From contig MNUP01000033.1 of NCBI GenBank assembly GCA_001871075.1, positions 437-64,436 on the forward strand: 64,000 nucleotides of DNA, given 5' to 3'. Below are positions 8,396 to 64,000 of the stretch, piece by piece. Position 1 is the first letter of the stretch; every line of letters begins with the position of its first letter. The translations under genes were made by a program, and so were the position numbers. This stretch comes from Candidatus Desantisbacteria bacterium CG1_02_49_89. Its GTDB lineage: Bacteria; Desantisbacteria; UBA1551. The notes under the pieces are model-generated. The model had not been told where the DNA came from. It was given only the letters and a program-made list of their open reading frames with translations, and searched no databases.

Positions 8396-8470
8396 GTGCC
8401 AAGGGGCGGAATTGAACCGCCGACGCACGGATTTTCAGTCCGTCGCTCTACCAGACTGAGCTACCTTGGC
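8396..8470 (-). tRNA. tRNA-Phe(GAA), with CCA encoded
   Basis: GCCAAGGTAGCTCAGTCTGGTAGAGCGACGGACTGAAAATCCGTGCGTCGGCGGTTCAATTCCGCCCCTTGGCACCA. Confidence 0.85.
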
Positions 8471-8756
8471 ACATCCTGGTTAATGATAAAGAAAAGATTG
8501 ATGAACCTTTCAGTCCGTCGCTCTTCCTGGGTGATCTGCATAAAAGAATGCGCGTCGCTTTGCTCTTCCACCCGTCGAAGACATAAGTGATGTCTTCGAC
8601 CCAGACTGAGCTACCTTGGCACGTTAAATACAGTGATGAGTGAAAAGTGTCGCCCCTTCGGCGACCCGCCGTTGAGGCGGGAAAAGTCAAAAGATCATAC
8701 AACAGACTGCCTGTCCGTAATTACTGATATTCGCTTAATTGATTGACGCTTTTTAT

Positions 8757-9063: not shown

Positions 9064-10752
9064 CTACATCGCGGGAAGATAAACATGGAATGCCGCGCCG
9101 TCGCCAAGCGCAGATTCGGCTGAAATATGCCCGCCGTGCTTCTTGACTATGGCGAAAGCGACTGAAAGGCCCAGGCCGCTGCCTTTCGGCCTGGTAGTGA
9201 AAAACGGGTCAAATATCTTCGCGAGGTTCTCCTTCGGTATTCCTTCGCCCTGGTCTTTTACTGTTGTTTTCACGTATTTTCCGCTGCTTATTGGCAGCCC
9301 GTGCCCCTGGCCGAGTTCAACGTTCTCAGCGGTTATCCTGACTGTACCTCCTTCAGGCATTGCCTGTTCAGCGTTAATAACCAGGTTGTTTATGGCCTGG
9401 CTTATCTGTCCCTTGTCCGCGGATACGGAATACAGGTCATCCGGGATCGAGAAATCGCATTTGACGCCTGAACCGTTCAGCGCGGATACCGCTGAATCCC
9501 TTATCAGTACTGCTATGTCAATTGGTTCTGCAATCGTAGAGTCGCCTTTTGAGAAAGTAAGCAGCTGCTGGGTCAGGCCCCTTGCGCGCAGGCACGCCTT
9601 CTCAGCCGTCGATAGCGTCTCGTATGCCTCCTCCCCTGCCCGCATGTTCATTTTAGCAAGGCTGATATTCCCGACAACCACTGTCAGTATGTTGTTGAAA
9701 TTGTGCGCGATGCCGCCGGCAAGTATGCCCAGCGATTCCAGTTTCTGGGCCTTTTTAAGCTCTTCTTCCATCGTTTTCCTTTCCGTTATGTCCCTTATCA
9801 CGGCTAAGTGGCCTATGGGATTGCCGTTTTTATCCTTCAGCAGGGTAAATGACATAAGAGCGGTGAAGGTTGTCTTGTCTTTTCTGTAATGCGTTGTTTC
9901 CTCTCCCCAGCACCTTTGCAATTCATTGAAACCGCCCCTGCCTGCCGCGTTTTTTGTCTGTTCTTCTGAGTATATATCCGTGGCTTTCATCCCTATCATC
10001 TCATCAGGGGAATACCCGTGTATGCCCGCAAACGCGTTATTCACATAGGTCAGCGCGCATTCCATATCGCATATGGCTATACCGTCTATGGACTGTTCAA
10101 CCGCGGCGCTCAGCTTCCTTATTTCAGCGTCCGCTTTCTCCTGTTCGACCCGCTGAGAAGCGGATTCAAGCGCGAACGAGATATACGCGGCTAAGTTCTT
10201 TACTGACGGTACGGCCAGTTCTGCCAGGACCGGGGCAGTCATCGCGAATACGCCGCCAACACTCCCGCGGACCCAGATGGGCGTCAGGATCGTAACTTCT
10301 TTTTCGTAACCGAGTGTCACTGATATGAGCTTCGCTATCGGCCCGGGGTACAATTCATCGATTATATCGCTTACCTTTACGTGAAGCGTCTGCGCTTCCC
10401 TGACCACTTTGCCGTAGATCTTGGATTTATCCAGGGATATCTTGTATTTTGAAAGGCTATTCCCGGTCATTTTTTCAAGAAAACCCTTTTTGTCTGAGGA
10501 GCTTACCGAGGATACTGCAATTTCAAGATTGTCCCTGTCTTCAGCCAGGAGCAGAACCGAGCCTGTATATTTCCCTGACCCGGTAAACTCCTTTTCGACC
10601 GCGCCCAGCACTTCAGCCCTGTCCATTTTGCGGCACAAAGCTGTAGCCACTTTCTCAGAAAACTGTATTATGTTTATCAGCTCAGTATTCAGCTTGTCCT
10701 GATCCTGCCCCGGTCCTGCCGCCCCGCCCTTCCCTTTTTCATCGTAACTCAT
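9064..10752 (-). CDS. GAF-PAS sensor histidine kinase
   Basis: HisKA motif LESLGILAGGIAHNFNN. HATPase_c G-boxes (GEGIPKENL, GSGLGLS). PAS and GAF upstream. Confidence 0.8.
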   Translation of the reverse strand: MSYDEKGKGGAAGPGQDQDKLNTELINIIQFSEKVATALCRKMDRAEVLGAVEKEFTGSGKYTGSVLLLAEDRDNLEIAVSSVSSSDKKGFLEKMTGNSLSKYKISLDKSKIYGKVVREAQTLHVKVSDIIDELYPGPIAKLISVTLGYEKEVTILTPIWVRGSVGGVFAMTAPVLAELAVPSVKNLAAYISFALESASQRVEQEKADAEIRKLSAAVEQSIDGIAICDMECALTYVNNAFAGIHGYSPDEMIGMKATDIYSEEQTKNAAGRGGFNELQRCWGEETTHYRKDKTTFTALMSFTLLKDKNGNPIGHLAVIRDITERKTMEEELKKAQKLESLGILAGGIAHNFNNILTVVVGNISLAKMNMRAGEEAYETLSTAEKACLRARGLTQQLLTFSKGDSTIAEPIDIAVLIRDSAVSALNGSGVKCDFSIPDDLYSVSADKGQISQAINNLVINAEQAMPEGGTVRITAENVELGQGHGLPISSGKYVKTTVKDQGEGIPKENLAKIFDPFFTTRPKGSGLGLSVAFAIVKKHGGHISAESALGDGAAFHVYLPAM

Positions 10753-11914
10753 TTTTAGCCTCCTTTATCACGCTGTCCAGCACCCTGCTTAATTTCGTAA
10801 TAGTATAAGGTTTTGGGATCCCTCCGATGAAGCCGTATTCCCGGTAATGCACCATTACAGGATCGTTTGAGCCGCCGCTTGACACGATCGCCTTCGCGCC
10901 CGGGTCCGTCTTCAGGATCTCGCCGATCGCTTCTCTGCCGCCCATCCTGCCCGGCACTATAAGGTCCATTATAACAACGCCGAATTTACTGCCTGACTCC
11001 ATAGCCTGCCTGTATGTTTCCGCTGCTTCCTTCCCGTCCCTTGCGGATGTTACCTTATAGCCGATCCTTTCCAGCATCAAGGCCGCGGTATTTAATACTT
11101 CTTCCTCGTCATCCATCAGAAGGACCCTGCCCTTACCCTGCAGGATCGTTTTTTTCTGCGCGGCCGCGGTTTCCGGTTTCCCCTCTGACGCCGGAATATA
11201 TATATGGAAAGAAGCGCCCATGCCTGGCCCTGACTCAGCTGTTATGTGCCCGTTGTGCTCTTTGAAGATCTCAGACGCGATATTAAGGCCTATGCCGCTG
11301 CCTTCATGTTTGGTAGTAAAAAAAGGCTCAAAGATCCTGGACAGGTTCTCGCCGGGTATCCCTATACCGGTGTCTTTCACGGTTATTTTCACGTATTTGC
11401 CGTTTTTCAGGGGGAAAGGGTGGCCCTGCTCCAGCACCGCGTTCTCCGCGCTGACCTTTATCGTGCTCCCTTTTGTTACTGACTGCTCGGCGTTTATCAC
11501 AACGTTGTTTATGGCAAGCGTGATGCGGCCGGGATCTATTTCAGCGTCCCACAGATCTTTTGGTATTGAGAACCTGCAGCCAACGCCTGAACCGTGAAGC
11601 GCCAGCATCGCTGAGCTTTTTATCAGGCCTTCCATGGATATCGTTTCATTAACAGGAGCTCCGCGGCTTGAGAAGGCAAAAAGCCGCCTGACCAGGTCTC
11701 TTGCGCGCAGGCATGCTTTCTCCGCTCCGCCTAATACCCTGTAAGCCGCGCCTGACGCGCCAGAATCCATTTTCGCGAGTTCTATATTACCCAGTATTAT
11801 TGTCAGCGCGTTATTCAGGTCATGGGCCGTGCCCGCGGTAAATTTAATGAAGGAAACCGATTCATCCAGTTTCTCCCGCAAGCCCCGCGAATGCATTCCT
11901 TGTTTAAGTTTCAT
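10739..11914 (-). CDS. Hybrid histidine kinase (HisKA-HATPase-REC)
   Basis: AHDLNNALTII H-box. GIGIPGENL / GSGIGLN. C-terminal receiver (VLLMDDEEEV...D). It overlaps the downstream kinase by 14 nt. Confidence 0.8.
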   Translation of the reverse strand: MKLKQGMHSRGLREKLDESVSFIKFTAGTAHDLNNALTIILGNIELAKMDSGASGAAYRVLGGAEKACLRARDLVRRLFAFSSRGAPVNETISMEGLIKSSAMLALHGSGVGCRFSIPKDLWDAEIDPGRITLAINNVVINAEQSVTKGSTIKVSAENAVLEQGHPFPLKNGKYVKITVKDTGIGIPGENLSRIFEPFFTTKHEGSGIGLNIASEIFKEHNGHITAESGPGMGASFHIYIPASEGKPETAAAQKKTILQGKGRVLLMDDEEEVLNTAALMLERIGYKVTSARDGKEAAETYRQAMESGSKFGVVIMDLIVPGRMGGREAIGEILKTDPGAKAIVSSGGSNDPVMVHYREYGFIGGIPKPYTITKLSRVLDSVIKEAKNELR

Positions 11915-11939: not shown

Positions 11940-12992
11940 CTATTTTCCGTGCAGCATGTTCTTCAAAAGGCCGGGATTGCTTGACCTGGAGATCGCCTCT
12001 TCATAATCGATCAGCCCCTTTTCATGCAGTTCCTTCAAAGACTGCTCCATGGTCGTCATCCCCTGTTCCCTTCCCAGCTGGATAGCGCTGGGTATCTGGT
12101 GGGTCTTGCCCTCGCGTATCAGGTTCGCTATGGCAGCCGTAAAAAGCATTATCTCCCTTGCCGCGACCCTGCCCCCGCCTATACGGCTGAGCAGCTGCTG
12201 GGAAATGATCCCCTTAAGGGCCATTGAAAGCTGCGCCCTTATCTGCTGCTGCTGGCCGACGGGAAAAACGTCTATGATGCGGTCCACGGTCTGGGCCGCG
12301 TCGATTGTATGGAGCGTGGAAAACACAAGATGCCCTGTCTCCGCGAGAGTTATCGCGGCAACAATGGTCTCCAGATCCCTCATCTCGCCCACCAGGAGCA
12401 CGTCCGGGTCCTCGCGCAGGGCGTCCTTCATGGCGCCCGCGAAGGAACCCATGTGGACGCTGAGCCCCCGTTGATGCACTACTGCTTTTTTCTTCGGGTA
12501 TATGAACTCGATGGGGTCTTCGACCGTGATAATGTGGCATTTCTTCTCGCTGTTTATCAGGTCTATCATGGCTGCAAGGGTCGTGGATTTCCCGCTGCCC
12601 GTAGGGCCGGTCACAAGCACCAGGCCCCTGGGAAGCCTTGCAAGGTCATAAGCGATCTTCGGCATATCAAGGCTTTCCATTGACGGAATCTTCGTGGGTA
12701 TCGGCCTGAGCGCTACCGCTATGCCGCCCAGTTCCTGGAATACGTTAACACGGAACCTGCCTTCAGTGATCCCGTATGAAAAATCCAGAGAGTAGTTCTC
12801 CTCGAACATTTTTGCCTGGTTTGTGCTCATCATGCTGTAAGCCAGGTTTTTTGCGTCAGCTGTGGTGAGATCCGTTTCGTTCATGGGGATAAGCTCACCT
12901 GCCAAACGGACCATCGCGGGCATGCCCGCGCTCAAATGGATGTCTGAAACTCCCTTTCTAACGCTCTCCTTCAGAATATCGTTGATGTCCAT
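11940..12992 (-). CDS. pilT: Type IV pilus retraction ATPase PilT
   Basis: Walker A GPTGSGKSTTLAAMID. PilT family architecture. 350 aa. Confidence 0.85.
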   Translation of the reverse strand: MDINDILKESVRKGVSDIHLSAGMPAMVRLAGELIPMNETDLTTADAKNLAYSMMSTNQAKMFEENYSLDFSYGITEGRFRVNVFQELGGIAVALRPIPTKIPSMESLDMPKIAYDLARLPRGLVLVTGPTGSGKSTTLAAMIDLINSEKKCHIITVEDPIEFIYPKKKAVVHQRGLSVHMGSFAGAMKDALREDPDVLLVGEMRDLETIVAAITLAETGHLVFSTLHTIDAAQTVDRIIDVFPVGQQQQIRAQLSMALKGIISQQLLSRIGGGRVAAREIMLFTAAIANLIREGKTHQIPSAIQLGREQGMTTMEQSLKELHEKGLIDYEEAISRSSNPGLLKNMLHGK

Positions 12993-13016: not shown

Positions 13017-14153
13017 TTACTCCGATTTCTTTTCCGGATCAGGCAAAATATCTCCGTTGTCACCGCCCGGGGAGCCTGACGGTCCCTGCCGGGTGTCTTT
13101 GAATTCCTCAGCGGTCTTTCTTACTTTTTCTATCGAACCGAGAAAGACCTTAAGGATCAACGGGTCGAAATGCCTGCCTGCCTCGCTGCCCATTATTTCA
13201 ACCGCTTTTTCAATAGTGTAAGACGGTTTGTAGACCCTTCTGGAAGTAAGCGCGTCAAATACATCCGCGATGGCCGCTATCCTGCCGAAAACAGGGATGT
13301 CCTCGCCGGATATGCGCCTGGGGTAACCGGTCCCGTCGAATTTTTCGTGATGCACGAGCGCGATATCCCTTGCCGGCTCCAGGATCTCGTTGCCTGAACC
13401 CGAGAGGATCTGCGCGCCTATGAGCGGGTGCCTTTTCACTTCCTCATACTCCTCCGCGGTGAGCTTGCCCGGTTTCAGCAGAGTTGATTTGCATATCCCT
13501 ATCTTGCCTATATCGTGCAAAGGAGAAGCGTATTTTATAAGCTCCGCCTGTTTCTCGGTAAGCCCCAGGCTTCTCGCGATAATAACGCAGTAATCTCTCA
13601 TCCTCAGCAGGTGGCCGCCTACCAACCCGCTCGGGTATTCGGCGATCGCGCAGAGCTTCAGGATGGTCTCTGAGATCGCGTCCTTGTTCTCCCTGGCAAG
13701 CTTGCTGGTTTCCACATCGGAACATACCAGTTTTTTCATAAGGGATCTTTCCCATTCGATATCGCCCCTCTGCTCTCTCTGCTCAAGATGGCTGTCCACG
13801 GTCATGCGCAGCGACTGCGCGTCAAAAGGTTTCACGATATAATCACAGGCTCCGGACTTGAAGATCCTTATCGTGGAATCAAGCGCAGGAAAGCCGGTCA
13901 TCACTATAACGTCTGTTGAGGGCGAGACCGCCTTTGTTCTTTTCAGCAGTTCTTCCCCGCCCAGCCCCGGCATTTTTATATCCGTCAGCATTAAGGCAAA
14001 CTTAACCCTCTGGATGTATTCAAGCGCTTCCATCCCGCCTGACGCGGCGTAGGTGCTGATCGAAGGTTTCTCAAGGGCGCGCCTGCAGAAATTCCTTATA
14101 TCCTCCTCGTCTTCAACTATCAGTACGTTCTCGTTTTTTTTATGCCCTGCCAT
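13017..14153 (-). CDS. Response regulator with HD-GYP c-di-GMP phosphodiesterase domain
   Basis: REC (LIVEDEEDIRNF...D). HD...HHEKFDGTGYP motif. Confidence 0.85.
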   Translation of the reverse strand: MAGHKKNENVLIVEDEEDIRNFCRRALEKPSISTYAASGGMEALEYIQRVKFALMLTDIKMPGLGGEELLKRTKAVSPSTDVIVMTGFPALDSTIRIFKSGACDYIVKPFDAQSLRMTVDSHLEQREQRGDIEWERSLMKKLVCSDVETSKLARENKDAISETILKLCAIAEYPSGLVGGHLLRMRDYCVIIARSLGLTEKQAELIKYASPLHDIGKIGICKSTLLKPGKLTAEEYEEVKRHPLIGAQILSGSGNEILEPARDIALVHHEKFDGTGYPRRISGEDIPVFGRIAAIADVFDALTSRRVYKPSYTIEKAVEIMGSEAGRHFDPLILKVFLGSIEKVRKTAEEFKDTRQGPSGSPGGDNGDILPDPEKKSE

Positions 14154-14177: not shown

Positions 14178-16046
14178 TTAATTTTCACTCGGCTGAACCC
14201 TTTTATCTCCGGGTTGTCTTTTGTAATTCACAAGCACCTCGTTTATCAGTTCCCCGAAATTCATTGGTTTAAAGATAAAATCGCAGGCGCCCAGCCTGAA
14301 CGCTTCCTCGGCAAGGTCTATGTTGTCATACGCCGTCATCATAATAACAGGCGCCTCGCATCCGGCATCCTTTATCAGGCCCAGAGTTTCCACCCCGTTC
14401 ATCTCAGGCATCCTGATATCCAGCAATATAAGGTCTATCGGCAGGTTTTTTATCATCCTTAATGCTTCGCGGCCTGAATTCGCGGTTTCCGCGTCAAATC
14501 CCGCTTTATCCAGCATCTCCTTTAAAATAACCGCCACATCCGCGTCGTCGTCCACTACAAGGATCTTCATATCGATCTTTTCCTTATTATTCACAGGCGC
14601 AACCGTTTGCCCCTTATCCGTTCCGTCATTCAAAAGCCTGTTGCGGCCTGCGTAAACATTATTTCCGCCGAGTTCTTTTGCCTTGTACATAGCCTTGTCC
14701 GCCGTTGCCGCAGGGTCGCATCCTTCAATATACTGAACTGTTCCAATGCTGATGGTAACGCCGCTTGAAGGAAAGATCTGTTCCTTTACTATTACCCTCA
14801 GTTTCTCGGCCAGCGCTATCGCGCTTTTGACGTCTGATCCGGGCAGCAGAACAAGGAACTCATCCCCGCCGCGCCTGAACGCCTTATCAACGCCCGCCCT
14901 GATCTCCTCATTCAGCATTCTGCCGAACCTTTGAAGGACCCTGTCGCCTGCCTCATGCCCGTAACGGTCATTGCACTTCTTGAACCCGTCCATGTCAATA
15001 GAGAGCATCGAGAATGGCTTTCCTGTCCCGGCGCTCCCGGCTTTCTCGGATTCAAGCGAGATGAAGAACTGCCTTGAGTTATATAACCCGGTAAGATAAT
15101 CAACCCTGCTCAGCCTCTGGACCGCGTCCATCATCTTCCTCTGGCTCGTAACGTCCACCAGGACTATTTCCACAGCCGGCTCGCCCTGGAAAGAGATAAG
15201 CTTGTTATTTATGATCATGTCTATAAATGTTCCATCTTTCCTTATTAAGCTCAGGTTATACCTGGGCACTTCCGCGCCTTCAAGGGTTTCCCTTACCTTC
15301 TCCGAGAACATTTCTTTGTCTTCGCGCTTTATTATCTCCCTGATATCGAACTTTCCGGGAACCAGGTCTCCGTCTTTATATCCCAGCAGCCTTTGCACGG
15401 CCCCGTTGATGTAACTGACGGTCGACCGCCGGAGGATCGCTATAATGTTCGGTGATGTTTCCACAAGCATCCTGAATTTTTCCTCGGATTTCTTCAGATC
15501 GTCCTCTACCCCGCCTATCTTGACGCCCTCACCCCACATCATATATGAAGTGAAGCCAAGGTAGGGAAGCCCTATTGCCACAAGGAACATCATCGCGCCT
15601 TTTTCGTTCATCACGATCCAGCCGGGGATGAAATCAAAACGCTGGCCGAGGAACAGAATAAGGAAAAGAAAGGCGCTCAGGCCTGCAAGGAAAGGTATGT
15701 TCTTCCTTCCGGTGAGCCTGGTAGCGATGATGATGGGCCATATGTAGGCGATGAAAAAGGCGGTGCGGATGCTGCCCATAAGATAAAGGAACAGCGAGAC
15801 AAAAAGCACGTCCAGGACAAAAGGCACGTAATTCACCCTGTGTATGATCCTGCTTGAAGCCATATACCTGTAAACAAGGCTTTCCGCGAATTCCACTATG
15901 CCCAGCACAAGCAAAGGAAGAAGCATCTCGGCATGCATTACCAGGCGCAGTATTATAATAAGGATAAGGAAAGAACCCGTGACCGCAAGGCGCACGCGGA
16001 TGAATTTTTTCCAGGAATCAGGCGTATTCAGTGTTTCGTTCCTCAT
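14178..16046 (-). CDS. Membrane PAS-GGDEF diguanylate cyclase with C-terminal receiver
   Basis: Multi-TM N-terminus. PAS. RGGDEF motif (RRGGDEFLVLLPG). C-terminal REC (ILVVDDDADV). Confidence 0.8.
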   Translation of the reverse strand: MRNETLNTPDSWKKFIRVRLAVTGSFLILIIILRLVMHAEMLLPLLVLGIVEFAESLVYRYMASSRIIHRVNYVPFVLDVLFVSLFLYLMGSIRTAFFIAYIWPIIIATRLTGRKNIPFLAGLSAFLFLILFLGQRFDFIPGWIVMNEKGAMMFLVAIGLPYLGFTSYMMWGEGVKIGGVEDDLKKSEEKFRMLVETSPNIIAILRRSTVSYINGAVQRLLGYKDGDLVPGKFDIREIIKREDKEMFSEKVRETLEGAEVPRYNLSLIRKDGTFIDMIINNKLISFQGEPAVEIVLVDVTSQRKMMDAVQRLSRVDYLTGLYNSRQFFISLESEKAGSAGTGKPFSMLSIDMDGFKKCNDRYGHEAGDRVLQRFGRMLNEEIRAGVDKAFRRGGDEFLVLLPGSDVKSAIALAEKLRVIVKEQIFPSSGVTISIGTVQYIEGCDPAATADKAMYKAKELGGNNVYAGRNRLLNDGTDKGQTVAPVNNKEKIDMKILVVDDDADVAVILKEMLDKAGFDAETANSGREALRMIKNLPIDLILLDIRMPEMNGVETLGLIKDAGCEAPVIMMTAYDNIDLAEEAFRLGACDFIFKPMNFGELINEVLVNYKRQPGDKRVQPSEN

Positions 16047-16663
16047 TTTGAACCTCCCGCGATTTTCTTCCTTGGAACCACATAGATGCGGAGCCCGGTC
16101 TCAAAAGTAACATTACCCAGCCCGAACGTGACATCTGAACCCGCTATGTCCGTGCTCATCATTGTGTAACCGTACCCAAGGCCGCAGTACACACAAAGCG
16201 CCTCATCAATGCCGATCTCGATCCCTGCTTTTGCTTCCACACCCCACAGCACTGTCTTGCCGGCGCCAAGCCCGTATGACTCAAGTATTGTTATCGCTTC
16301 TTTACCGCTGCCGATAAGGAACGGCAGAACATCATTGAATAGTTCATCTTTTGTATTAGTTTCCTTATAATACTTAAGGTCAATGCCGATGAACGGGCTT
16401 ATGAACTTCTGCTTGATCCTCGTCTGGAATCCCACTGTTACCGGAGTCATCTTGATACGCCCTTCGCTATCCACGCACCATCCCGGCACTATCCTTAGTG
16501 AACCCATCAGGATCTCGATCTGCCACATACCGGTCATAGAACCGATCCCTCCCGCGCTTCCCAAAACAGCGTGACTTGCGCCGAGCGCAAAACCGGACAC
16601 ATTTCCGCTGAACCCCAATCCGAGAACACCCGCGACTGCCACTGCCGCCAACAATCTTTTCAT
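16043..16663 (-). CDS. Putative 8-strand outer-membrane beta-barrel protein, paralog B
   Basis: Signal peptide MKRLLAAVAVAG. Alternating aromatic/Gly beta-strand pattern. About 45% identical to the 16706-17353 product. The tracked ORF extends to 16699, but the internal MKRLL start at 16663 fits better. It overlaps the GGDEF gene start by ATGA. Confidence 0.55.
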   Translation of the reverse strand: MKRLLAAVAVAGVLGLGFSGNVSGFALGASHAVLGSAGGIGSMTGMWQIEILMGSLRIVPGWCVDSEGRIKMTPVTVGFQTRIKQKFISPFIGIDLKYYKETNTKDELFNDVLPFLIGSGKEAITILESYGLGAGKTVLWGVEAKAGIEIGIDEALCVYCGLGYGYTMMSTDIAGSDVTFGLGNVTFETGLRIYVVPRKKIAGGSK

Positions 16664-16705
16664 AACTCCTCCTGCTTTAAACGTTTGTTCTATCCGCATT
16701 CAGGA

Positions 16706-17353
16706 TCATTTCTTCACGCCGGGCACCGCGGGATTATTCCCGTGCTCATCCTTAGGCCTGCCGATAAGATAAAGACGGAACCCTGTTTCCCATGTCACGC
16801 TGCCTATACCGAAGGTTACGTTGCCTGAACCAAAGTTTGCACTTATCATTGTGTAGCCGAAGCCTATGCCGGTGTAGATCCTGACCGCTTTATCCAGGCC
16901 GAATTCCACGCCTGCCTTTGCCTCAATTCCCCACAGAGTGGTGTAGCCGTCTCCAAACCCGTATTTCTGGATCTCTGCCATCAGGTCCGTGCTGCAGCCG
17001 ATTATCTTCGGAAGAACCTTATTGAACAGTTCATCTTTTGAACTGGTTTCCGCGTAATACGTAAGGTCCAGCCCGATATAAGGGCTGATGAAAGGCAGGG
17101 GCGCTTTCGCGATAAAACCAAACGTGAACGGGGTCATCATTACTCTTCCCTCGTTGTCTGTAAGCCAGCCCGGGGTAATGCACAAGGGCCCGACCAAGAC
17201 CTCGATCTGCCACATACCGTTCATGGAGCCTACCCCTGAAATGTTTCCCAGCCCGGCATGCCTTGCGCCGATGCTGACATCCAGAGCTTCCGCCGCCATA
17301 CCGAAACCTGCTACCGCTGCTAAAACCAGCATAACCGTTAACACCTTCTTCAT
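16706..17353 (-). CDS. Putative 8-strand outer-membrane beta-barrel protein, paralog A
   Basis: Signal peptide MKKVLTVMLVLAAVAG. Shared motifs with paralog B: MNGMWQIEVLVGPL and C-terminal GFRLY. Confidence 0.55.
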   Translation of the reverse strand: MKKVLTVMLVLAAVAGFGMAAEALDVSIGARHAGLGNISGVGSMNGMWQIEVLVGPLCITPGWLTDNEGRVMMTPFTFGFIAKAPLPFISPYIGLDLTYYAETSSKDELFNKVLPKIIGCSTDLMAEIQKYGFGDGYTTLWGIEAKAGVEFGLDKAVRIYTGIGFGYTMISANFGSGNVTFGIGSVTWETGFRLYLIGRPKDEHGNNPAVPGVKK

Positions 17354-17410
17354 AAAACCTCCTTAAAAATTTTGTTTTTGTCTGCGACGCAACCTTCTTG
17401 TGTAACAATA

Positions 17411-17431
17411 AAAGACAACAAACGTGCCAAC
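17411..17431 (-). promoter_or_regulatory. Candidate sigma-54 (-24/-12) promoter for the OMP/GGDEF/HD-GYP/pilT operon
   Basis: The minus strand reads TGGCACGTTTGTTGTC, i.e. TGGCAC-N5-TTGT against the consensus TGGCAC-N5-TTGC. It lies about 60 nt upstream of the 17353 start. An NtrC-family activator gene sits immediately upstream. Confidence 0.4.
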
Positions 17432-17749
17432 ATCGTCCGTTAAGGAGCGGTTTTCTGGGTATTTTAATGTTTTCCCGTCGGTAAAACAAAAATAGAAGTT
17501 TAATTTTGGTTCATGGAAGGCGGGCTGACGCAGGGCGGAAGTGAATACCGGAAATATGCGGCAATAAGCGGAAAAAACAGGGAATCAGGTATTCTGTGTA
17601 TGAAAAAAATGAATATATTTTTTGTTCACTGAATATCGGCTTTAAAATAAAAAATCCCCCTTTTCTAAAAGAGGATTTGGAGTAGGGGCTTTAGCCCCGT
17701 TTTTTACGACCGTAAAGGGTCTATTCCAAAAGAATGAGGGCTGTCAAAA

Positions 17750-17776
17750 TAAAAAACCGCCCTTATTCAGAGCGGT
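17750..17776 (-). terminator. Intrinsic terminator after the NtrC-like gene
   Basis: The minus strand reads AACCGCTCTGAATAAGGGCGGTTTTTT, a hairpin plus T-run, about 65 nt after the stop at 17841. Confidence 0.5.
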
Positions 17777-17840
17777 TAGTTCCTATGTTCCCATGGTTCA
17801 CGTTTAACAATTTACATTTTGAATTTTGCATTTTGCATTT

Positions 17841-19241
17841 TTAATTATATTCCTCCCTCCTCCTTATCCCGTGTTTCCTCATAAGCGAATGGAAATTCTG
17901 CCTTTTCATTTTCACTTCCAACGCGGTCCTGCTGACGTTCCCGTTGTTCCTCTCCAGGGCGCTGGAAACAAACAGCTTTTCCAGTTCTTCAACAGCCTTT
18001 GCCCTCAGGTCTCTTTTTGCCTCTTTCAGCTTGTCGCTGCTCCTGGGGACCTCAGCCGATAACCGGACTTCATCTTTCCGGAATTCATTGGGAAGGTGGT
18101 TAGGCAGCACGGATTCATCCGCGACTGTAACTGCAAGCCTCTCAACAAGATTCTCAAGCTCGCGCACGTTGCCCGGCCAGTTATATTCCATCATCAGGTT
18201 CATTGCCTCAGGGGAAAATGACCTGACTTTTGAGCCTTTCCCGCGTATCGAAAGGAAATTCTCTATGAAGAGCGGTATGTCCTCTTTCCTTTCTCTAAGG
18301 GGAGGGATGTGCACCGGCACCACGTTCAAGCGGTAGAAAAGGTCTTCCCTGAAACTGCTGTCCTTCACCATTTTTTTAAGGTTTTTATTCGTCGCGGCGA
18401 TGATACGCACGTCCGCCTTCTTATTTACCACGTCCCCGACCCTCTTGAACTCCTTTTCCTGGAGCACCCTCAGCAGCTTTGCCTGGACACCGAGTGTGAT
18501 GTTGCCTATCTCATCCATGAAAAGAGTGCCGCCTTCGGCTGTTTCAAAAAGGCCTGGTTTATCCGCAGCTGCCCCGGTAAAAGAACCCTTCATATGGCCG
18601 AACAGCTCGCTTTCCATCAGGTTCTCGGAAAGGCTGCTGCAGTCAACGGATACGAAAGGCCTGCCTTTCCTTGGGCTGTTATGGTGTATGGCGTGCGCCA
18701 CAAGCTCCTTTCCTGTCCCGCTTTCTCCGGTTATCAGTATGGTGCTGTCAGTGCAGGACACCTTTTCAAGCAGGTCGTATATTTTTTGCATGGCCTGGCA
18801 TTTTCCCATTGCTTTTCCGAACGCGTATCTGTCTCCCAGTTCTTTTTTAAGCCTCTTGTTCTCTTTGATCATACCTTTGGATTCCAGCATCTTGGATACC
18901 TTTACGCGCAATTCCTCAGGCATGAACGGCTTGGGTATGTAGTCTGAAGCCCCAAGTTTCATTGCCTCCACCGCGTCGCCTACAGTGGAATAGCCTGTGA
19001 TCAGCAGTATGCTTATTTCCGGATACGCCTTCTTCGTCCGCCTGAGCAGTTCCATGCCGTTCATTCCCGGCATATTCACGTCCGCGATCACGATATCCGG
19101 GACTTTTTCGCCTATTTTCCTGAATGCTTCCGCCCCGTTCAGAGCTGTCTCGATAATGTAATCGCAGCTCTTCAGGATCGAAGCGCAGGCATCGCATATT
19201 TCCTTCTCATCATCCACGATCAGGATCCTGTATTTCTCCAT
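17841..19241 (-). CDS. NtrC-family sigma-54-dependent response regulator
   Basis: REC. AAA+ sigma-54 activator core (GESGTGKE, GAFTGA-like GSFTGA, ESELFGH). C-terminal Fis-type HTH. Confidence 0.85.
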   Translation of the reverse strand: MEKYRILIVDDEKEICDACASILKSCDYIIETALNGAEAFRKIGEKVPDIVIADVNMPGMNGMELLRRTKKAYPEISILLITGYSTVGDAVEAMKLGASDYIPKPFMPEELRVKVSKMLESKGMIKENKRLKKELGDRYAFGKAMGKCQAMQKIYDLLEKVSCTDSTILITGESGTGKELVAHAIHHNSPRKGRPFVSVDCSSLSENLMESELFGHMKGSFTGAAADKPGLFETAEGGTLFMDEIGNITLGVQAKLLRVLQEKEFKRVGDVVNKKADVRIIAATNKNLKKMVKDSSFREDLFYRLNVVPVHIPPLRERKEDIPLFIENFLSIRGKGSKVRSFSPEAMNLMMEYNWPGNVRELENLVERLAVTVADESVLPNHLPNEFRKDEVRLSAEVPRSSDKLKEAKRDLRAKAVEELEKLFVSSALERNNGNVSRTALEVKMKRQNFHSLMRKHGIRRREEYN

Positions 19242-29455: not shown

Positions 29456-31597
29456 TTAATCACGTCTGCCTTTAACTACCCCGTGCATTACACTGCTGAT
29501 CACATCCACAGAACAGGGTTTTGGTATGGCGGCCGCGAAACCGTATTTTTTATAATCGGAAATAACCGGGTCATCGGAATAACCGGTGGTCACCACTATC
29601 CTCGCGCCCGGGCTGATCTTGAGCAGTTCCACGGCAGTTTCTTTGCCGCCAAGCCCTCCTGGGATGATCATATCAACGATAACCGCGTCAAACGGATCTT
29701 TTGAATTCAGGGCTTTACTGTACAGATCGATCGCTTCTCTTCCTTCCCGCGCAAAGCTGACGCTGTATCCGAAATGCATAAGCACGCGCCCCATCGTATT
29801 CCTTACCTGCTCCTCATCGTCCATCAGCAGTATATTCCCTTTCCCTTCATAGAAAGCCTTCGCGGTTTCTTCTGTTTTAGTTCCGTTACTCGACGCGGGT
29901 ATGTATATATTAAAAGTTGTGCCCCTGCCTGTTTCTGATTCAACAGTGACGGCGCCGTCATGCCTTTTTATTATTGAATACGCGATCGAAAGGCCCAGCC
30001 CGATCCCGCCTTTTTTGGTCGTGAAAAACGGGTTAAAGATCTTCCCGATATGCTCTTCGGATATTCCGGGGCCTTTGTCCTGGATCCCTATTTTTACGTA
30101 CCTGCCTTCCTTCAGCCCGTTCTCTCCCTGTCTGACAACCGCATTATCGGCTCTTATTGTTATGAGCCCTCCCCCTTTCACTGCCTGCCTTGCGTTGAGT
30201 ATAATATTGCTTATTGCCTGGTTTATCTGCCCGGAGTCTACTTCTGTCTGCCAGAGGTCTTTCTGTATTAAAAATTCGGGTTTCAGGTCTGAGCCGTGAA
30301 GGGCAAAATTCACAGAGTCTTTTATCAGTTTTACTGTCTTGGCCGGTTTCTTTACCGGCTCCCCTCCTCTCGCAAAAGTAAGAAGATGATGCGTAAGTTC
30401 TTTCGCGCGCCTGCCCGCGTTTTCGGCTTCTTCCAGCAGCTCTTTTTCCTCTTTTCTGCTGGAATGCCTGATCTTAAGAAGCCCGATGTTCCCGAGTATC
30501 GGTGTGAGCATATTGTTGAAATCGTGCGCTATCCCCCCGGCGAAAATCCCCAGCATTTCAAGCCTTTCTGTTTTTTCGAGTTCCGCTTCGATCCTCCTGC
30601 GCTCCGTGATGTCGCGTATGACCCCTACCATATACGCGGTTTTTCCCTCGCTGCCCGCAATAAACCTGCTTATTGCCTCCATAAACGCGATATTCCCGTC
30701 TTTTTTTAGAACACGGAAAATATACCTGGGTCTGAGCTCGTTCTCCGCCACATTACTTAAATTATTTCTTATTGACTCCCTTTCGTCCGGATGGATGAGC
30801 TGCAGCCAGTCCCCTCCCGTAACATCTTCCTGTTTATACCCGAGCAGCTGATAAATGTTGGGGCTTATAAAATCCACCTTGCCGCTTGTGTCGAAAGAGA
30901 AAATAATGTCGCTGCTGTTGTCAACGACCATCCTGTATTTTTTCTCGGCTTCATCAAGCTTTCTTTCTTCTTTCTTAAATAAGCGGCTTCCCAGAACTTT
31001 CCACTCATTATCCTGCCTGATAACGGTAAACTCGTGGTTTTGAATAACGTCCAGCACTTCAGATGCTTCGCATTTTTTAAAAGGATACGCGCAGAAAGCT
31101 ATCATCCTGTATTTTTCGATAACGCCGTTGATCGCTTCCTCGTATTTCCTGAAGCTTTCCCAGTGCTTTTTTTGAAGCCATGCCGTATCCCCCGCAGCCC
31201 TTATTCCTTCATAGCCGTCTGCAAGCGCCTGGCCCAGCACCTTATCCCATAACGCCATAACTCTTTCGGCATCAAACTCATTGTTTATCAGATACCATTC
31301 ATCATAGGGAATTATCTTGAACCGGCCCTTTTTTATATACTCATCAAGATCAGGCATAACCTTTTGCATTGCCCCGCTGATCTCGTTCTCTTCCGGTGTT
31401 CCGGAAGCGATCCACATGCAGAGCTCATTATTCTCAAGCCCTGCCCTGAAATAGGGGGCGAGTATCTCAAGAAGGTCATCTTTGCCTGAATAAAGCTGGC
31501 AGATATGGGTCCCCCACGGTATATCACCCAGGAAAACAATGCCTGATCTCCTATTATTACCTTTCATACCTGTCCTTTCCTTTAATATATAAACCAC
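29456..31597 (-). CDS. MEDS-domain hybrid sensor kinase (MEDS-PAS-HisKA-HATPase-REC)
   Basis: N-terminal GDIPWGTHICQLYSGKDDLLEILAPYF (MEDS). GIAHDFNNMLTPI. GPGISEEHI / GIGLGLS. C-terminal REC. Confidence 0.75.
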   Translation of the reverse strand: MVYILKERTGMKGNNRRSGIVFLGDIPWGTHICQLYSGKDDLLEILAPYFRAGLENNELCMWIASGTPEENEISGAMQKVMPDLDEYIKKGRFKIIPYDEWYLINNEFDAERVMALWDKVLGQALADGYEGIRAAGDTAWLQKKHWESFRKYEEAINGVIEKYRMIAFCAYPFKKCEASEVLDVIQNHEFTVIRQDNEWKVLGSRLFKKEERKLDEAEKKYRMVVDNSSDIIFSFDTSGKVDFISPNIYQLLGYKQEDVTGGDWLQLIHPDERESIRNNLSNVAENELRPRYIFRVLKKDGNIAFMEAISRFIAGSEGKTAYMVGVIRDITERRRIEAELEKTERLEMLGIFAGGIAHDFNNMLTPILGNIGLLKIRHSSRKEEKELLEEAENAGRRAKELTHHLLTFARGGEPVKKPAKTVKLIKDSVNFALHGSDLKPEFLIQKDLWQTEVDSGQINQAISNIILNARQAVKGGGLITIRADNAVVRQGENGLKEGRYVKIGIQDKGPGISEEHIGKIFNPFFTTKKGGIGLGLSIAYSIIKRHDGAVTVESETGRGTTFNIYIPASSNGTKTEETAKAFYEGKGNILLMDDEEQVRNTMGRVLMHFGYSVSFAREGREAIDLYSKALNSKDPFDAVIVDMIIPGGLGGKETAVELLKISPGARIVVTTGYSDDPVISDYKKYGFAAAIPKPCSVDVISSVMHGVVKGRRD

Positions 31598-31599
31598 AC

Positions 31600-32118
31600 C
31601 TATTCTTTTTTAATGGTTCTTTTTGATTCCTGTTCAACCCATTTTTCAAGCAGATCCCTGCTTATACGCCACTGCTTGCCTATTTTGGAAAAGGGTATCT
31701 TTCCCTGCTGGGCAAGGCGGTATACCGTAAAATGATGCAGTTTAAGATACTCTGCGACTTCCCTTATATTCATAATTTTGCCTATGTCATCAAAGGGTTT
31801 TGGTATGAATTCCTGCGCCCCCATTTCAAGCGCTTTATCAATATCCTTGCCTACATCATACCCGCTCATCATAACCACTATAGCATCCGGGTTTAGTTTT
31901 TTGATATCCCGGAGCAGCTCTACCCCTTCGATTTTGGGCAGTTTTACGTCAAGGAATATAAGATTATATCGCAGATGGTGCAGCATACGCAGAGCCTCGA
32001 TCGCATCAAGGGCAACACTCAAAGAGCTCTGTGTCCCGAACAACCTCGCAAAAAAAGCAAGGATAGAAGGGTCGTCATCCACTACCATTATAGAAAGTTT
32101 TTCCTTTTGGTCAGGCAT
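31600..32118 (-). CDS. Response regulator with excisionase-family (MerR-like) HTH output
   Basis: REC (LSIMVVDDDPS...D). C-terminal IMNIREVAEYLKLHHFTVYRLAQQGKIPFSKIG, an Xis/excisionase-type DNA-binding domain. Confidence 0.7.
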   Translation of the reverse strand: MPDQKEKLSIMVVDDDPSILAFFARLFGTQSSLSVALDAIEALRMLHHLRYNLIFLDVKLPKIEGVELLRDIKKLNPDAIVVMMSGYDVGKDIDKALEMGAQEFIPKPFDDIGKIMNIREVAEYLKLHHFTVYRLAQQGKIPFSKIGKQWRISRDLLEKWVEQESKRTIKKE

Positions 32119-32249
32119 ACATACCTCTCTTTCTTTCTTTAAGTATGCTATTATATACTATTTTATCAAAAAGTCAAGAAAAAACAACAAACGATAATAG
32201 AATTTAATAAAATTAACAATATTCCATATTCAGCCTAAAATAACAAAAG

Positions 32250-32292
32250 GCGCTGTGTCTGTATGAATTCAGACTTTCAGCGCCTTATATTT
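32250..32292 (-). terminator. Intrinsic terminator after the 32317-32868 gene
   Basis: The minus strand reads AAGGCGCTGAAAGTCTGAATTCATACAGACACAGCGCCTTTTGTTATTTT, a hairpin followed by a T-rich tract. Confidence 0.5.
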
Positions 32293-32316
32293 ATTGCTTA
32301 AATCCCGCTTATTTTT

Positions 32317-32868
32317 TTAATCCTTTCTTTTGCCGGCTTTATGCCCTATCCTTCCCGCCTCCTGCTTTACCCACTTGTCAAGCATATCTTTCTTTATGCG
32401 CCAGGACCTGCCGATCTTGGAAAAGGGGATCTTTCCCTTCTGCGCAAGGCGGTATACCGTCAGATGGTGGAGTTTTAAGTATTCAGCTACTTCCTTAATA
32501 TTCATTATCTTATCCACGTCAACAGGTTTTGGCAGGAATTCCTGGGCTCCCTTGCTAAAAGCCTTCTTGATCTCCCGTGATATATCATACCCGCTTATAA
32601 GAATAACTATTGCTTCAGGATTTGTCTTTTTCAGATCTTCAAGCACGCTTACGCCGTCTTTATCCGGAAGCATATAATCAAGGAATATAAGGTTGTAGAG
32701 CTGGAATCCTGCCATGCGCAGCGCTTCATCAGCGGACATAGCAATGCTTAAGGAATGCTGGTTCCCGAATATCCTTTTGAAAATACCGAACACGGACGGG
32801 TCGTCATCAACAACCAGTATGTTCAACCTGCTTTTTTCTTCCTGCATATTTATCCTCCTGAAAACCAA
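32317..32868 (-). CDS. Response regulator with excisionase-family HTH output (paralog of 31600-32118)
   Basis: Same REC + Xis-HTH architecture (IMNIKEVAEYLKLHHLTVYRLAQKGKIPFSKIG). Confidence 0.7.
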   Translation of the reverse strand: MVFRRINMQEEKSRLNILVVDDDPSVFGIFKRIFGNQHSLSIAMSADEALRMAGFQLYNLIFLDYMLPDKDGVSVLEDLKKTNPEAIVILISGYDISREIKKAFSKGAQEFLPKPVDVDKIMNIKEVAEYLKLHHLTVYRLAQKGKIPFSKIGRSWRIKKDMLDKWVKQEAGRIGHKAGKRKD

Positions 32869-40570: not shown

Positions 40571-40912
40571 CTATTGATGTTCCTTTTCTTCTGATCTTAA
40601 CTCGCACTTGCCGGTGAAATAGGCACCTTCCCTGATCGTGGAACTGCTTGCCCTGATGTCCCCCCTCAGTTCGCCGCCCGGCTGTATCTCAACGCCCTGT
40701 TTCGCTTCGACATTGCCGTCAAGCTTTCCGTAGATTATAAGGTTAGAGCATTTGACATCGGCTTTTATGACAGCGGTTTTCCCTATGATTATAGTGCTTC
40801 CTATGATATTCCCCGCAAATTTCCCGTCCAGGCGTATCATGCCGTCGCATATAAGCTCGCCGTTCAGGGTTGTTCCTTCGCCCAGGATCGTTTCGAATTT
40901 CTCTCCGTTCAT
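40571..40912 (-). CDS. Bactofilin (DUF583/CcmA-like)
   Basis: 113 aa with a repetitive beta-helical pattern (G.I.G...IIGK.A.IKADVKC..LIIYGKLDGNV). Confidence 0.75.
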   Translation of the reverse strand: MNGEKFETILGEGTTLNGELICDGMIRLDGKFAGNIIGSTIIIGKTAVIKADVKCSNLIIYGKLDGNVEAKQGVEIQPGGELRGDIRASSSTIREGAYFTGKCELRSEEKEHQ

Positions 40913-40913
40913 T

Positions 40914-41858
40914 TTAGTAGAGGTATTTAAACGGGTTCACGTGTTTGCCGTTCACCCGTATTTCATAATGCACGTGCGGACCTGTAGTGTGCCCGCTTGT
41001 CCCGACTTTTGCTATAATTTCGCCTTTTTTTACGAACTGCCCGGCTCTAACGGTGTTTGCGGAATTGTGGCCGTACCAGGTCTGTATGCCTCTTCCGTGG
41101 TCGATCACAACCAGCCTTCCATAGCTGGCTTTCCACCCGCTGAACTCCACCATGCCGTCAGCCGCCGACCTTATGGAAGAGCCGTATAATGTAGCTATAT
41201 CTATTCCCGAATGGAACTCCCTGTTGCCCTTGAATGTCCTCCAGCCATACCTGGAAGTTATCCATCCCCTTATCGGCCAGCGGTTGGGCGTTACCTTTAT
41301 GAAAGAGACTTGAGATTTCAGGAATTCGGTAAGGTCTGTGAGGACGTTCCTGCTGCCACGCAGCTCTTTTTTCAGCTTGTTGATGTCCTCGTCCAGTCTT
41401 TTTACAAGTTCGGGGTCGGGAGCGTCTGTTCCGCCGGTATAGGCGCCGATGCCCATTTTTTCCGCGCTTCTGGAATCCGCGTATGGAAGCGGCGGGGAAG
41501 GAGCTTTGCTGCGCTTCAGCACTCCTTTAAGGTCGCTTGCTTTTCTGTCCAGGTTCTTCAGCTCTCCCATCTGTTTCTTCAGACTTTCCACCTCTCTTGC
41601 GAATTCAAGGGTTTTCTGGACCTGGTCCTTGTAGATCTCCTCCCTTACGCGCAACTCGGTAACCTCGTTTTTAATGATCTTGTAATTTCTGGCAAAGAAA
41701 TACGTGCCGAACGCCAGGCCTATCAAAACGTAAAGGAATATCCTGCCTGTGCTGGTGGGAAGCTTCAGGTTGAATATCTTTTTGTTGTCATGCGGAACAA
41801 TAAGTATCGAAAAAAATTTCTTCTCTGCCATCCAATCTCCTTTATGTAACCTTATCAA
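40914..41858 (-). CDS. M23-family metallopeptidase (LytM domain) with N-terminal TM and coiled coil
   Basis: HSGIDIA...GHTTGPHVHYEIRVNG. It sits directly upstream of, and 2 nt from, the bactofilin gene. Confidence 0.8.
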   Translation of the reverse strand: MIRLHKGDWMAEKKFFSILIVPHDNKKIFNLKLPTSTGRIFLYVLIGLAFGTYFFARNYKIIKNEVTELRVREEIYKDQVQKTLEFAREVESLKKQMGELKNLDRKASDLKGVLKRSKAPSPPLPYADSRSAEKMGIGAYTGGTDAPDPELVKRLDEDINKLKKELRGSRNVLTDLTEFLKSQVSFIKVTPNRWPIRGWITSRYGWRTFKGNREFHSGIDIATLYGSSIRSAADGMVEFSGWKASYGRLVVIDHGRGIQTWYGHNSANTVRAGQFVKKGEIIAKVGTSGHTTGPHVHYEIRVNGKHVNPFKYLY

Positions 41859-54664: not shown

Positions 54665-55111
54665 CTATTTATTTTTATAAAATAATGATGTAAGTGTTTT
54701 TTTCAGCGCCGCAACGCCCTTTTCGTCATCGATCTTGTAGCTGTTTATAAGGAATTCCGCTATGGATTGCGCCATTGCGCTCGCCTGGTTATTCTCAATA
54801 GACAGATAGTCAACCCCGGTCTGCATTTTACCGGGCTCTGTCTCTTCGGACCACACTACCCTTCCGATCGCCTTTATTTTGTGCTCGGGAAACGCCAGAA
54901 TAATTTCCAGTATCGTATTGGGAGGTATTATCTCATTTGTAACTATGCACAGCCCGCTCGTGCTGAAATTCTTTGTGGAAGTATTATAAATTTTTTGCCC
55001 AAGGTTCTCAAAATCTTCTTTTGATATGTTAGAGAGCGCGCGGTATTTCACCGGGATTTTGCCGCTTATGCGGGGGAATGTTCTCCTTTCTTCGCCCTTC
55101 CAGTCTCCCAT
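54665..55111 (-). CDS. PilZ-domain (c-di-GMP-binding) protein
   Basis: RR..R motif (EERRTFPRI). D.S.GG-like (STSGLCIV). Confidence 0.7.
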   Translation of the reverse strand: MGDWKGEERRTFPRISGKIPVKYRALSNISKEDFENLGQKIYNTSTKNFSTSGLCIVTNEIIPPNTILEIILAFPEHKIKAIGRVVWSEETEPGKMQTGVDYLSIENNQASAMAQSIAEFLINSYKIDDEKGVAALKKTLTSLFYKNK

Positions 55112-62660: not shown

Positions 62661-63548
62661 CTACAACGTAGTTGTAGCCTTACGCAGAGCCCAGCAGGAT
62701 ATATTGATCGCTACAGGCAGTCCTGCTATATGGGTCGGAAAGGTTTCTATATTTACTCCGAGGGCAGTTGTCTTACCCCCGAATCCTCCCGGCCCTATCC
62801 CCAGCGCATTTATTTTTCTTAATAGTCTATTTGCTAATTCTGACACTTGACATCCGCCCCGATCAATGTCGGGGCGAGACCTCGCCCTGCCTTTGCGCAG
62901 GGCGGGCTGGACTCTTGACACTGGTTTAAGGAGTGCTTCCTTCGCAATCACCATCGCTTTCTCGGAAGTTCCGCCTATTCCCACTCCAACGATCAGAGGC
63001 GGACAGGCATTCGGACCGAATTTCTTAACCGTTTCGACTATAAAATCTTCTATTGCGCCGGATTTTTCACCGGGCAGGAACATTCTGATCGTACTTGTAT
63101 TTTCGCTTCCGAAACCCTTGGGCAGTACCGTAATTTTTATCCTGCTGCCCGGAACGACTTTTGTGTGGATCACGGCTGGAGTGTTGTCGCCTGTATTTAC
63201 GCGTTTCCCGAAAGGATCTTCCACAACCGAAGCACGCAGGCAGCCTTTTCTATACCCGGAACGCACGCCTTCCTGTATTGCTTTTTCAAGATTTCCCTTG
63301 ATATGAAGATCCTGCCCTATTTCCAAAAACACCACAGCCATCCCGGTATCCTGGCACATCGCGATGGATCCTTTTTCCGCTATCTCAATATTTTTGAGGA
63401 TTGAATCCATAGCGTATCCGGCAAGACCTTTTTCTCTTTTTGCCGCTTTCTGTATGGCTTTTTTTACATCAGGCCGTAATGTATAATTCGCCCTCATGCA
63501 CAGTTCCGCTACGGTATCGGTTATTTTAGAAGCATTTATGATTTTCAT
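62661..63548 (-). CDS. Class I fumarate hydratase alpha-type subunit (Fe-S hydro-lyase N-terminal domain)
   Basis: MKIINASKITDTVAELCMRANYTLRPDV...CQDTGMAV. The Cys ligands typical of the tartrate/fumarate hydro-lyase alpha region. Confidence 0.8.
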   Translation of the reverse strand: MKIINASKITDTVAELCMRANYTLRPDVKKAIQKAAKREKGLAGYAMDSILKNIEIAEKGSIAMCQDTGMAVVFLEIGQDLHIKGNLEKAIQEGVRSGYRKGCLRASVVEDPFGKRVNTGDNTPAVIHTKVVPGSRIKITVLPKGFGSENTSTIRMFLPGEKSGAIEDFIVETVKKFGPNACPPLIVGVGIGGTSEKAMVIAKEALLKPVSRVQPALRKGRARSRPDIDRGGCQVSELANRLLRKINALGIGPGGFGGKTTALGVNIETFPTHIAGLPVAINISCWALRKATTTL

Positions 63549-64000
63549 TTGTTTGTTTTATCTTTCAAATTTACATTTTGTCCCCGCAGGTTTCTTACCC
63601 TGTGAAATGCAAAGCATTTCCAGGACTTGAGTCCCTGAAATCGCATTCGCGATTTCTAGGGGTGAAATCTAGACGCTGGGATCCCTTAGGGACATTTTGA
63701 CTTTTGCAATGTATTTTTAAGTATATTATTTCAAGCACCCCGGCTTCCCGCCTTTCTCCCTGTGATATTTGATGCATTCGCAGCAAATACCATGCCGCTC
63801 ACAGTCAGTGTTGGTGCATGTGCAATTCTTTTCATTTTCCTTTTTATTCTGGCATTCTTTTCTCATATACTACCTCCCGTAACCACAGGTGAACACAGGT
63901 GCACACAGTAAATCAGATCTAAAGTCATTTAAGTTAATATCTGAAAATAGCATCTAACAGTGTTGACCTGTGTTAATCTGTGGTTAAAGTATCTGTATGC

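Follow-up and report, generated by a model that had tools for sequence, protein, structure and literature searches.

A probable sigma-54 promoter between an NtrC-family activator gene and a predicted beta-barrel and c-di-GMP operon of Candidatus Desantisbacteria

Which promoter serves an operon whose first genes resemble no described family, and is the activator gene directly upstream involved in its control? This question is raised by a stretch of 64,000 nucleotides from Candidatus Desantisbacteria bacterium CG1_02_49_89, here called the window, in which the gene of an NtrC-family activator is followed on the minus strand by a non-coding spacer and by genes for predicted outer-membrane barrels, c-di-GMP enzymes and kinases (Table 1). 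In an initial annotation of this DNA, a sigma-54-type promoter had been proposed within the spacer.

The genes of the predicted operon overlap or are separated by gaps of at most 25 nt, and no convincing internal terminator was found between 9064 and 17353; we infer that the eight genes are transcribed together. Both barrel proteins carry signal peptides. Neither matched a Pfam family at E <= 0.001 or an NCBIfam model at E <= 1e-5. Among 5.8 billion clustered proteins only the two window barrels themselves were found, and a HMMER search of 1.84 billion cluster representatives gave eight matches, which are the first window barrel and seven distant relatives. Judged by these searches, the barrel family appears to be nearly orphan and to belong to no described sequence family. 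To the known small barrels (OmpA N-domain, OprF-N, NspA, OmpW, OprH) the two proteins would be similar in the modelled fold only. They contain a helical insert of about 25 residues (106-129) and have a charged C-terminal tail, whereas the distant relatives end with an aromatic residue. No orthologous barrel-gene loci were detected in the genome and metagenome contig collections scanned, and the other metagenomic copies of the locus belong to the same strain, with 100% identity across the spacer. A distant barrel homolog on contig L085 has a clear sigma-70 promoter (TTGACT-17-TATAAT) and no activator gene, so that sigma-54 control is not a property of the barrel family.

Beyond the end of the operon, a perfect extended sigma-70 promoter (TTGACA, 16 nt, TG-n-TATAAT; 8966-8937, minus strand) precedes an 84-aa ORF (8448-8702) without a family match; by its sequence, this promoter (8966-8939) would mark the next transcription unit. 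Elsewhere in the window are encoded a bactofilin (40571-40912) and a stand-alone PilZ-domain protein (54665-55111), the latter a possible c-di-GMP receptor for the cyclase and the phosphodiesterase of the operon.

The activator gene ends at 17841 with the stop codon TAA (17843-17841), exactly where it had been placed before. Its product has a receiver domain (PF00072 at 7e-30, with the Asp in DVNMPGMNG), an AAA+ domain of the Sigma54_activat family (PF00158 at 4e-70, with the Walker A motif GESGTGKE and a GSFTGA loop) and a C-terminal HTH_8 domain that scores just above the cut-off (23.1 bits versus 22). By this domain content, it is a complete enhancer-binding protein, able to contact sigma-54. 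The best NCBIfam match is AtoC with 444.6 bits against an equivalog cut-off of 714 bits, and with AtoC, NtrC, ZraR and all other NCBIfam equivalog models every score was below the cut-off, for AtoC, NtrC and ZraR by a wide margin; the protein thus belongs to the NtrC family without being assigned within it, and it is not an ortholog of AtoC. Upstream of it are encoded a REC-PAS-kinase-REC hybrid, a REC-REC protein and two more kinases. An rpoN gene was not found among the genes of the 64-kb window. The window encodes LptE and an LpxB-like protein, and sigma-54 has been reported to be almost universal in diderm, LPS-bearing bacteria (PMC3162934). Further away, 29456-32868 encodes a MEDS-PAS-kinase-REC hybrid and, after it, two response regulators in tandem of the type REC-HTH_17 (excisionase-type HTH), an uncommon combination of output domains.

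Between the activator gene and the gene at 16706-17353, the minus strand of the spacer reads ...GATGTTGGCACGTTTGTTGTCTTTTATTGTTACA..., and both direct reading and an exact-pattern search place TGGCACGTTTGTTGTC at 17429-17414. The initial annotation had located a -24/-12-like element at about 17431-17411, 60 nt upstream of the first barrel gene; the exact position agrees with this, and we counted 62 nt from the -12 base to the ATG at 17353. The -24 box, TGGCACG at 17429-17423, is perfect, its GG being 17428/17427 within the TGGCAC box. The GG-N10-G spacing (G17427 to G17416) is canonical, with G(-13) at 17416 and T(-12) at 17415. In comparison with the consensus TTGC[A/T], the -12 box TTGTC has kept T, T and G, while it has T for C at -12 and C at -11. 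A GT at -12 is also found in the bound and/or confirmed promoters pspA, pspG and ygeW (PMC3844500, PMC4591121). The element is intergenic and oriented toward the gene, at a distance that lies within the about 300 nt upstream of the start codon used as a promoter criterion (PMC3162934). If transcription starts near A17403, a 5' UTR of roughly 50 nt is predicted.

Table 1. Features of the spacer and its surroundings, in window coordinates, and the corresponding elements of related loci.
Feature	Position	Strand	Basis or remark
NtrC/AtoC-family response-regulator enhancer-binding protein	17841..19241	-	REC, AAA+, HTH_8
Heptamer tandem repeat, AAAATGC-like on minus strand, 4.4 copies	17816..17846	.	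overlaps activator stop codon
Intrinsic terminator T1 of kinase/activator operon	17745..17777	-	stem 17777-17755 and T-run to about 17745
Terminator-like hairpin T2 with T-run	17643..17678 (hairpin 17678-17652)	-	aligns with sole L086 terminator
Non-coding block conserved with L086	17519..17666	-	local alignment
Candidate enhancer (UAS) dyad GCATAT-TTCCG-GTATTC, 17 bp	17543..17559	-	recurrence in related spacers
Palindrome TGTTTTACCG-A-CGGGAAAACA	17468..17488	.	centred about -75
Sigma-54 type -24/-12 core TGGCACG-TTTG-TTGTC	17414..17429	-	sequence, matrix scores, L086 offset
Predicted transcription start, about A17403	17401..17405	-	inferred from -12 register
Strong Shine-Dalgarno AAGGAGG	17358..17364	-	4 nt before ATG 17353
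First gene of predicted operon, 215 aa, signal peptide, modelled 8-stranded outer-membrane beta-barrel	16706..17353	-	
Paralog of first gene, 218 aa	16043..16699	-	50% identical
PAS-GGDEF-REC	14178-16046	-	predicted operon member
REC-HD-GYP	13017-14153	-	predicted operon member
PilT-family ATPase	11940-12992	-	predicted operon member
Hybrid kinase	10739-11914	-	predicted operon member
PAS kinase	9064-10752	-	predicted operon member
GG-N10-GC element of L087, TGGCATAAAAATTGCT			
GG-N10-GC element of L089, CGGCACAGACCTTGCT			
GG-N10-GC element of L090, TGGCATTAAAATTGCC			
GG-N10-GC element of L091, TGGCCATAAGATTGCT			

How far can such an element be expected by chance? The pattern TGGCAC-N5-TTGY has a single match in the window, and at least one match occurs in 27% of shuffles. 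With a matrix built from 27 intergenic ChIP-chip sites of Salmonella (PMC3844500, Table 3), the element scores 16.55 bits, which falls in the range of the training sites (16.4-23.2), and ranks first in the 64-kb window, 3.7 bits above the second site; 0.19 such sites are expected per window, and P is about 0.001 for the spacer. A matrix of 42 intergenic-sense ChIP-seq sites of E. coli (PMC4591121, Table 1) gives 11.9 bits and rank 3, at the 19th percentile of the leave-one-out scores of the genuine sites, with 4.2 chance sites per 64 kb and 0.016 per spacer. The third, a rough consensus matrix made for this analysis, gives 12.0 bits, rank 4 and 4.6 chance sites per 64 kb, or 0.017 per spacer (4.6 × 487/128,000). 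The matrix scan proposed in the initial annotation hence has a mixed outcome, with the element at the top of the window for the Salmonella matrix and at rank 3-4, with 4-5 chance sites per 64 kb, for the other two. This spread is almost wholly due to the different treatment of T at -12 by the matrices, and the scores alone are equivocal because the element reads GT and not GC at -12. The only sites with a higher score under the E. coli matrix, 40997-41013 and 56210-56226 on the plus strand, lie within genes and in antisense orientation to them, so that the element is the best intergenic, gene-oriented site with the Salmonella and the E. coli matrices. By itself, the score is moderate evidence for a promoter and not decisive. 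Another possible sigma-54-like site is CGGCATGGTATTTGCT (63782-63797, minus strand), located about 234 nt ahead of the gene for the alpha-subunit of fumarate hydratase (62661-63548). Its base at -26 is C instead of T, and for this reason only the rough matrix gives it a high score.

More can be learned from a related locus. The closest relative of the activator, and the only close one found, is P0011 on contig L086, with 63% identity and an almost identical recognition helix (MKRQNFHS[L/M]MR). Its gene is followed on the 3' side by a 502-nt non-coding spacer. Local alignment of 17666-17555 of the window with 2062-2177 of L086 gave a score of 44 (z about 9), compared with 22.3 +/- 2.4 and a maximum of 32 in 500 shuffles, and by this measure the two spacers are homologous. 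Both contain the T-run of T2, two copies of TATTCA 20 nt apart, TTGCCGCATA with a third TATTCA 7 nt later, and CCCGCC; in the window, the TATTCA half-sites lie at 17635-17630, 17615-17610 and 17547-17542, TTGCCGCATA at 17564-17555 and CCCGCC at 17524-17519. The distance from CCCGCC to the GG of the -24 box is exactly 96 nt in both loci. When the two sequences are anchored at this GG without gaps, GTTGGCA is identical at 7/7 positions, TG at -14/-13 and TAT at -7 to -5 coincide, and GGGAAAA(A)CA is found at -48 and -47, respectively, while the sequence between the shared elements has otherwise diverged. The strict conservation of the linker length suggests a phasing requirement. The core in L086 is TTGGCAT-N5-CTGC, with a canonical CTGCT and GC at -12 (TTGGCATTAAACCTGCT). 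Its downstream genes encode KaiB and a kinase, unlike those of the window, which indicates that the conserved unit is the regulatory cassette and not the cargo. L086 holds the sole homologous spacer; when metagenomes were scanned for the DNA pattern of this block, two matches were obtained, both by chance and inside coding sequence. As a separate observation, L086 carries an identical 18-mer in inverted orientation at 69-86 and 542-559, near the start of this short ENA contig; this could reflect an error of assembly or an inverted repeat with which the activator gene begins at its 5' end.

The initial annotation had advised a search for inverted repeats upstream of the element, and such a repeat is present: the 17-bp dyad at 17559-17543 is centred -123 from the GG of the -24 box and about -148 from the predicted start, the latter being the classical position for an enhancer of the NtrC type. 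A dyad of the form GCATAT-N5-ATATGC with at most 2 mismatches is found in 5/6 related spacers, and the dyads are located 96-188 nt before the GG of the -24 box. The copy of L090 is perfect, those of L089 and L091 have one mismatch each, and L086 has two copies; the dyad of L087 has 3 mismatches. The probability of a chance match is 0.008-0.05 per spacer, and 6 of the 13 dyad sites in 118 kb fall inside the 2 kb of spacer. We consider it likely that the dyad is the enhancer, a strong lead for which the consensus was defined post hoc. In the same region, CGG recurs with a 10-bp period (CGGAAATATG CGGCAATAAG CGGAAAAAAC; 17549-17588), and this array is flanked by the inverted repeat GAATACC...GGTATTC (17594-17543).

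An enhancer within the spacer had also been suspected before, in a heptamer array and in A/T-rich tracts. In part this was right, as a conserved dyad with TATTCA half-sites is present at 17666-17519; the heptamer array itself is not conserved. The array is real, with 4.4 copies at 17816-17846 instead of the three reported at 17813-17841. L086 does not have it, its distance upstream is about 410-440 nt, and it is probably not part of the enhancer. The palindrome at about -75 was rejected as the main enhancer as well: only its promoter-proximal half (GGGAAAACA) has been kept in L086, at -48/-47 from the GG. It could be the site of a second protein or a bend.

Two hairpins stand between the activator gene and the conserved block. 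The hairpin and T-run terminator previously described at 17750-17776 was recovered as T1, with the stem at 17777-17755 and the T-run reaching to about 17745. T2 follows about 75 nt after T1, and between them lies a GGGGCTAAAGCCCC hairpin (17698-17685) with its T-run on the plus strand; the interval could serve as tandem insulation or give rise to a small transcript. An Rfam scan of 16500-18500 returned no match at E <= 1, so no known riboswitch or sRNA accounts for the T1 and T2 hairpins. An sRNA ending at T2 was rejected as well, as conservation starts at the 3' arm and the T-run of T2 and runs downstream, not upstream. The same holds for a 39-aa ORF on the plus strand (17513-17632), called as a gene in L001, which is broken by indels of 1, 2 and 3 nt against L086 and is without a ribosome-binding site.

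Moreover, we found that the arrangement recurs in other relatives of the activator. A GG-N10-GC element lies 45-78 nt before the next gene in all five relatives examined (5/5); besides L086, these are L087, L089, L090 and L091, with 55-57% identity and the element before the next start codon (Table 1). With the E. coli matrix, the spacer sites of the five relatives rank first or second in their entire locus. As a control, 47 loci of distant activators (41-48% identity) were searched for GGCAY-N5-YTGY within 500 nt downstream, a loose pattern which, like the dyad consensus, was defined after these sequences had been viewed; 1/47 had a match, compared with 0.87 expected, which is the chance rate. 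The difference between 5/5 and 1/47 indicates that the arrangement is specific to the clade and not general to genes of the NtrC family. A set of 80 activator loci from reference genomes was discarded as comparators, since they are only 40-48% identical and do not share the architecture. The downstream cargo consists of a receiver and an antiporter-like subunit beside a NiFe hydrogenase in L087, L090 and L091, and of redox proteins in L089. The gene order of the first three (2433-10166 in L087), namely small and large subunits of NiFe hydrogenase, PAS kinase, activator, sigma-54 promoter, single-domain receiver and antiporter-like (Proton_antipo_M) subunit, is reminiscent of hydrogen sensing of the HoxBC/HoxJ/HoxA type.

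The position and the strand of the element, the complete activator gene next to it, the same offset in L086 and the recurrence in the relatives support the sigma-54 reading of the initial annotation, and we put the probability that 17429-17414 is the sigma-54 promoter of the operon from 17353 to 9064 at roughly 0.8. It is unlikely, by comparison, that the motif has arisen by chance and that the operon is transcribed from another, unrecognised promoter of the spacer (for instance one for sigma-70 or an ECF factor) or by polymerase reading through from the operon of the activator. Such an explanation would agree with the 4-5 equal or better sites per 64 kb given by two of the matrices, with the missing C at -12 and with the sigma-70 promoter of the barrel homolog in L085. 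However, only 0.001-0.017 sites are expected in the spacer on the gene strand, the motif has been kept at the same position in L086, a consensus scan of the spacer detected no -35/-10 pair of the sigma-70 type on the strand of the gene, and two terminators block read-through.

Smaller still is the chance that sigma-54 holoenzyme binds at 17429-17414 and that the site is poised or regulatory and not the main productive promoter. Most of the 135 sigma-54 sites of E. coli are intragenic, and the authors of that study do not know which of them are functional promoters (PMC4591121); the site described here, in contrast, is intergenic, correctly oriented and close to the start codon, with the gene of a cognate-type activator adjoining and a conserved candidate enhancer at the usual distance. 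Very improbable, finally, is a reading of TTGGCA (17430-17425) as a sigma-70 -35 box with TGTTAC or TATTGT as -10, for although TTGGCA agrees with TTGACA at 5/6 positions and L086 has TATAAT at the position matching TATTGT, in both loci only 14 nt separate it from TATTGT/TATAAT, which is too short, a spacing of 17 nt leads to TGTTAC with 3/6 matches and without A2 and T6, and the gene strand is empty in the consensus scan.

A sigma-54 promoter downstream of its activator gene has well-studied counterparts. In E. coli, where atoD has an AtoC-dependent sigma-54 promoter, AtoC binds an inverted repeat roughly 110-150 nt upstream. The atoSC-atoDAEB locus resembles that of the window in that the genes of a kinase and an NtrC-family regulator lie directly upstream of a sigma-54 operon in the same orientation, and atoD is a confirmed sigma-54 site (PMC4591121). 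The enhancer sequence of the window is different, however, its kinases are multi-domain hybrids, and its cargo consists of envelope and signalling genes, whereas that of atoSC-atoDAEB serves fatty-acid catabolism. At the level of the core, the PspF-dependent pspA promoter of E. coli and Salmonella (TGGCACGCAAATTGTA) is nearly the same as TGGCACGTTTGTTGTC and shares the rare GT at -12, the base at -11 being A in pspA and C in the window. Both pspA and pspG have this GT together with an adjacent activator gene. In contrast to the window activator, PspF lacks a receiver domain, and control is exerted on it by PspA, which binds it; its gene is transcribed divergently, and IHF assists.

NtrC (NRI) at glnAp2 has the same order of REC, AAA+ and Fis-type HTH and 17-bp dyads about 100-150 nt upstream, and the design that we propose shares DNA looping and ATP-driven promoter opening with it. 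The dyad of NtrC is TGCACC-N5-GGTGCA, whereas that of the window is GCATAT-N5-ATATGC-like, with one good dyad and half-sites visible, and models of NtrC stay below the cut-off for the window activator. The regulatory design is an ordinary one with an unusual cargo, and it is nothing conceptually new with respect to sigma-54 regulation.

Under the preferred reading of the element as a sigma-54 promoter, RNA polymerase with sigma-54 would form a closed complex at TGGCACG-N4-TTGT. Signals would be sensed by the kinases encoded upstream, and the neighbouring hybrid kinases would phosphorylate the response-regulator activator, which in this state would attach to the conserved enhancer block, at about 115-260 nt upstream; the core of the block is the dyad at 17559-17543, flanked by the TATTCA half-sites. 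The bound activator may oligomerise, loop the A/T-rich linker and open the promoter with ATP. A transcript beginning near 17403 would then cover the two barrel genes, the genes for the c-di-GMP enzymes and PilT and two kinase genes. T1 and T2 would insulate the operon from read-through of the activator operon.

The activator may belong to a small clade, so far represented only by metagenome and MAG contigs, whose members are part of a portable cassette of kinase, activator, enhancer and promoter placed before unrelated cargo. This broader idea is tentative and somewhat less probable than its opposite; in it, each member examined may have its own GCATAT-N5-ATATGC dyad and a sigma-54 promoter directly downstream of the activator gene. 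If it is true, the cassette of the window would be a sigma-54/c-di-GMP switch of surface behaviour. For an activator clade not characterised before, the dyad GCATAT-N5-ATATGC provides a recognition site that can be tested. If the sigma-54 reading of the element is correct, an operon that otherwise defies annotation would gain a regulator, an enhancer motif and a promoter, and a multi-kinase phosphorelay would be tied to two orphan outer-membrane barrels and to c-di-GMP and PilT functions, in agreement with the role in controlling the cell exterior that has been proposed for sigma-54 (PMC3162934).
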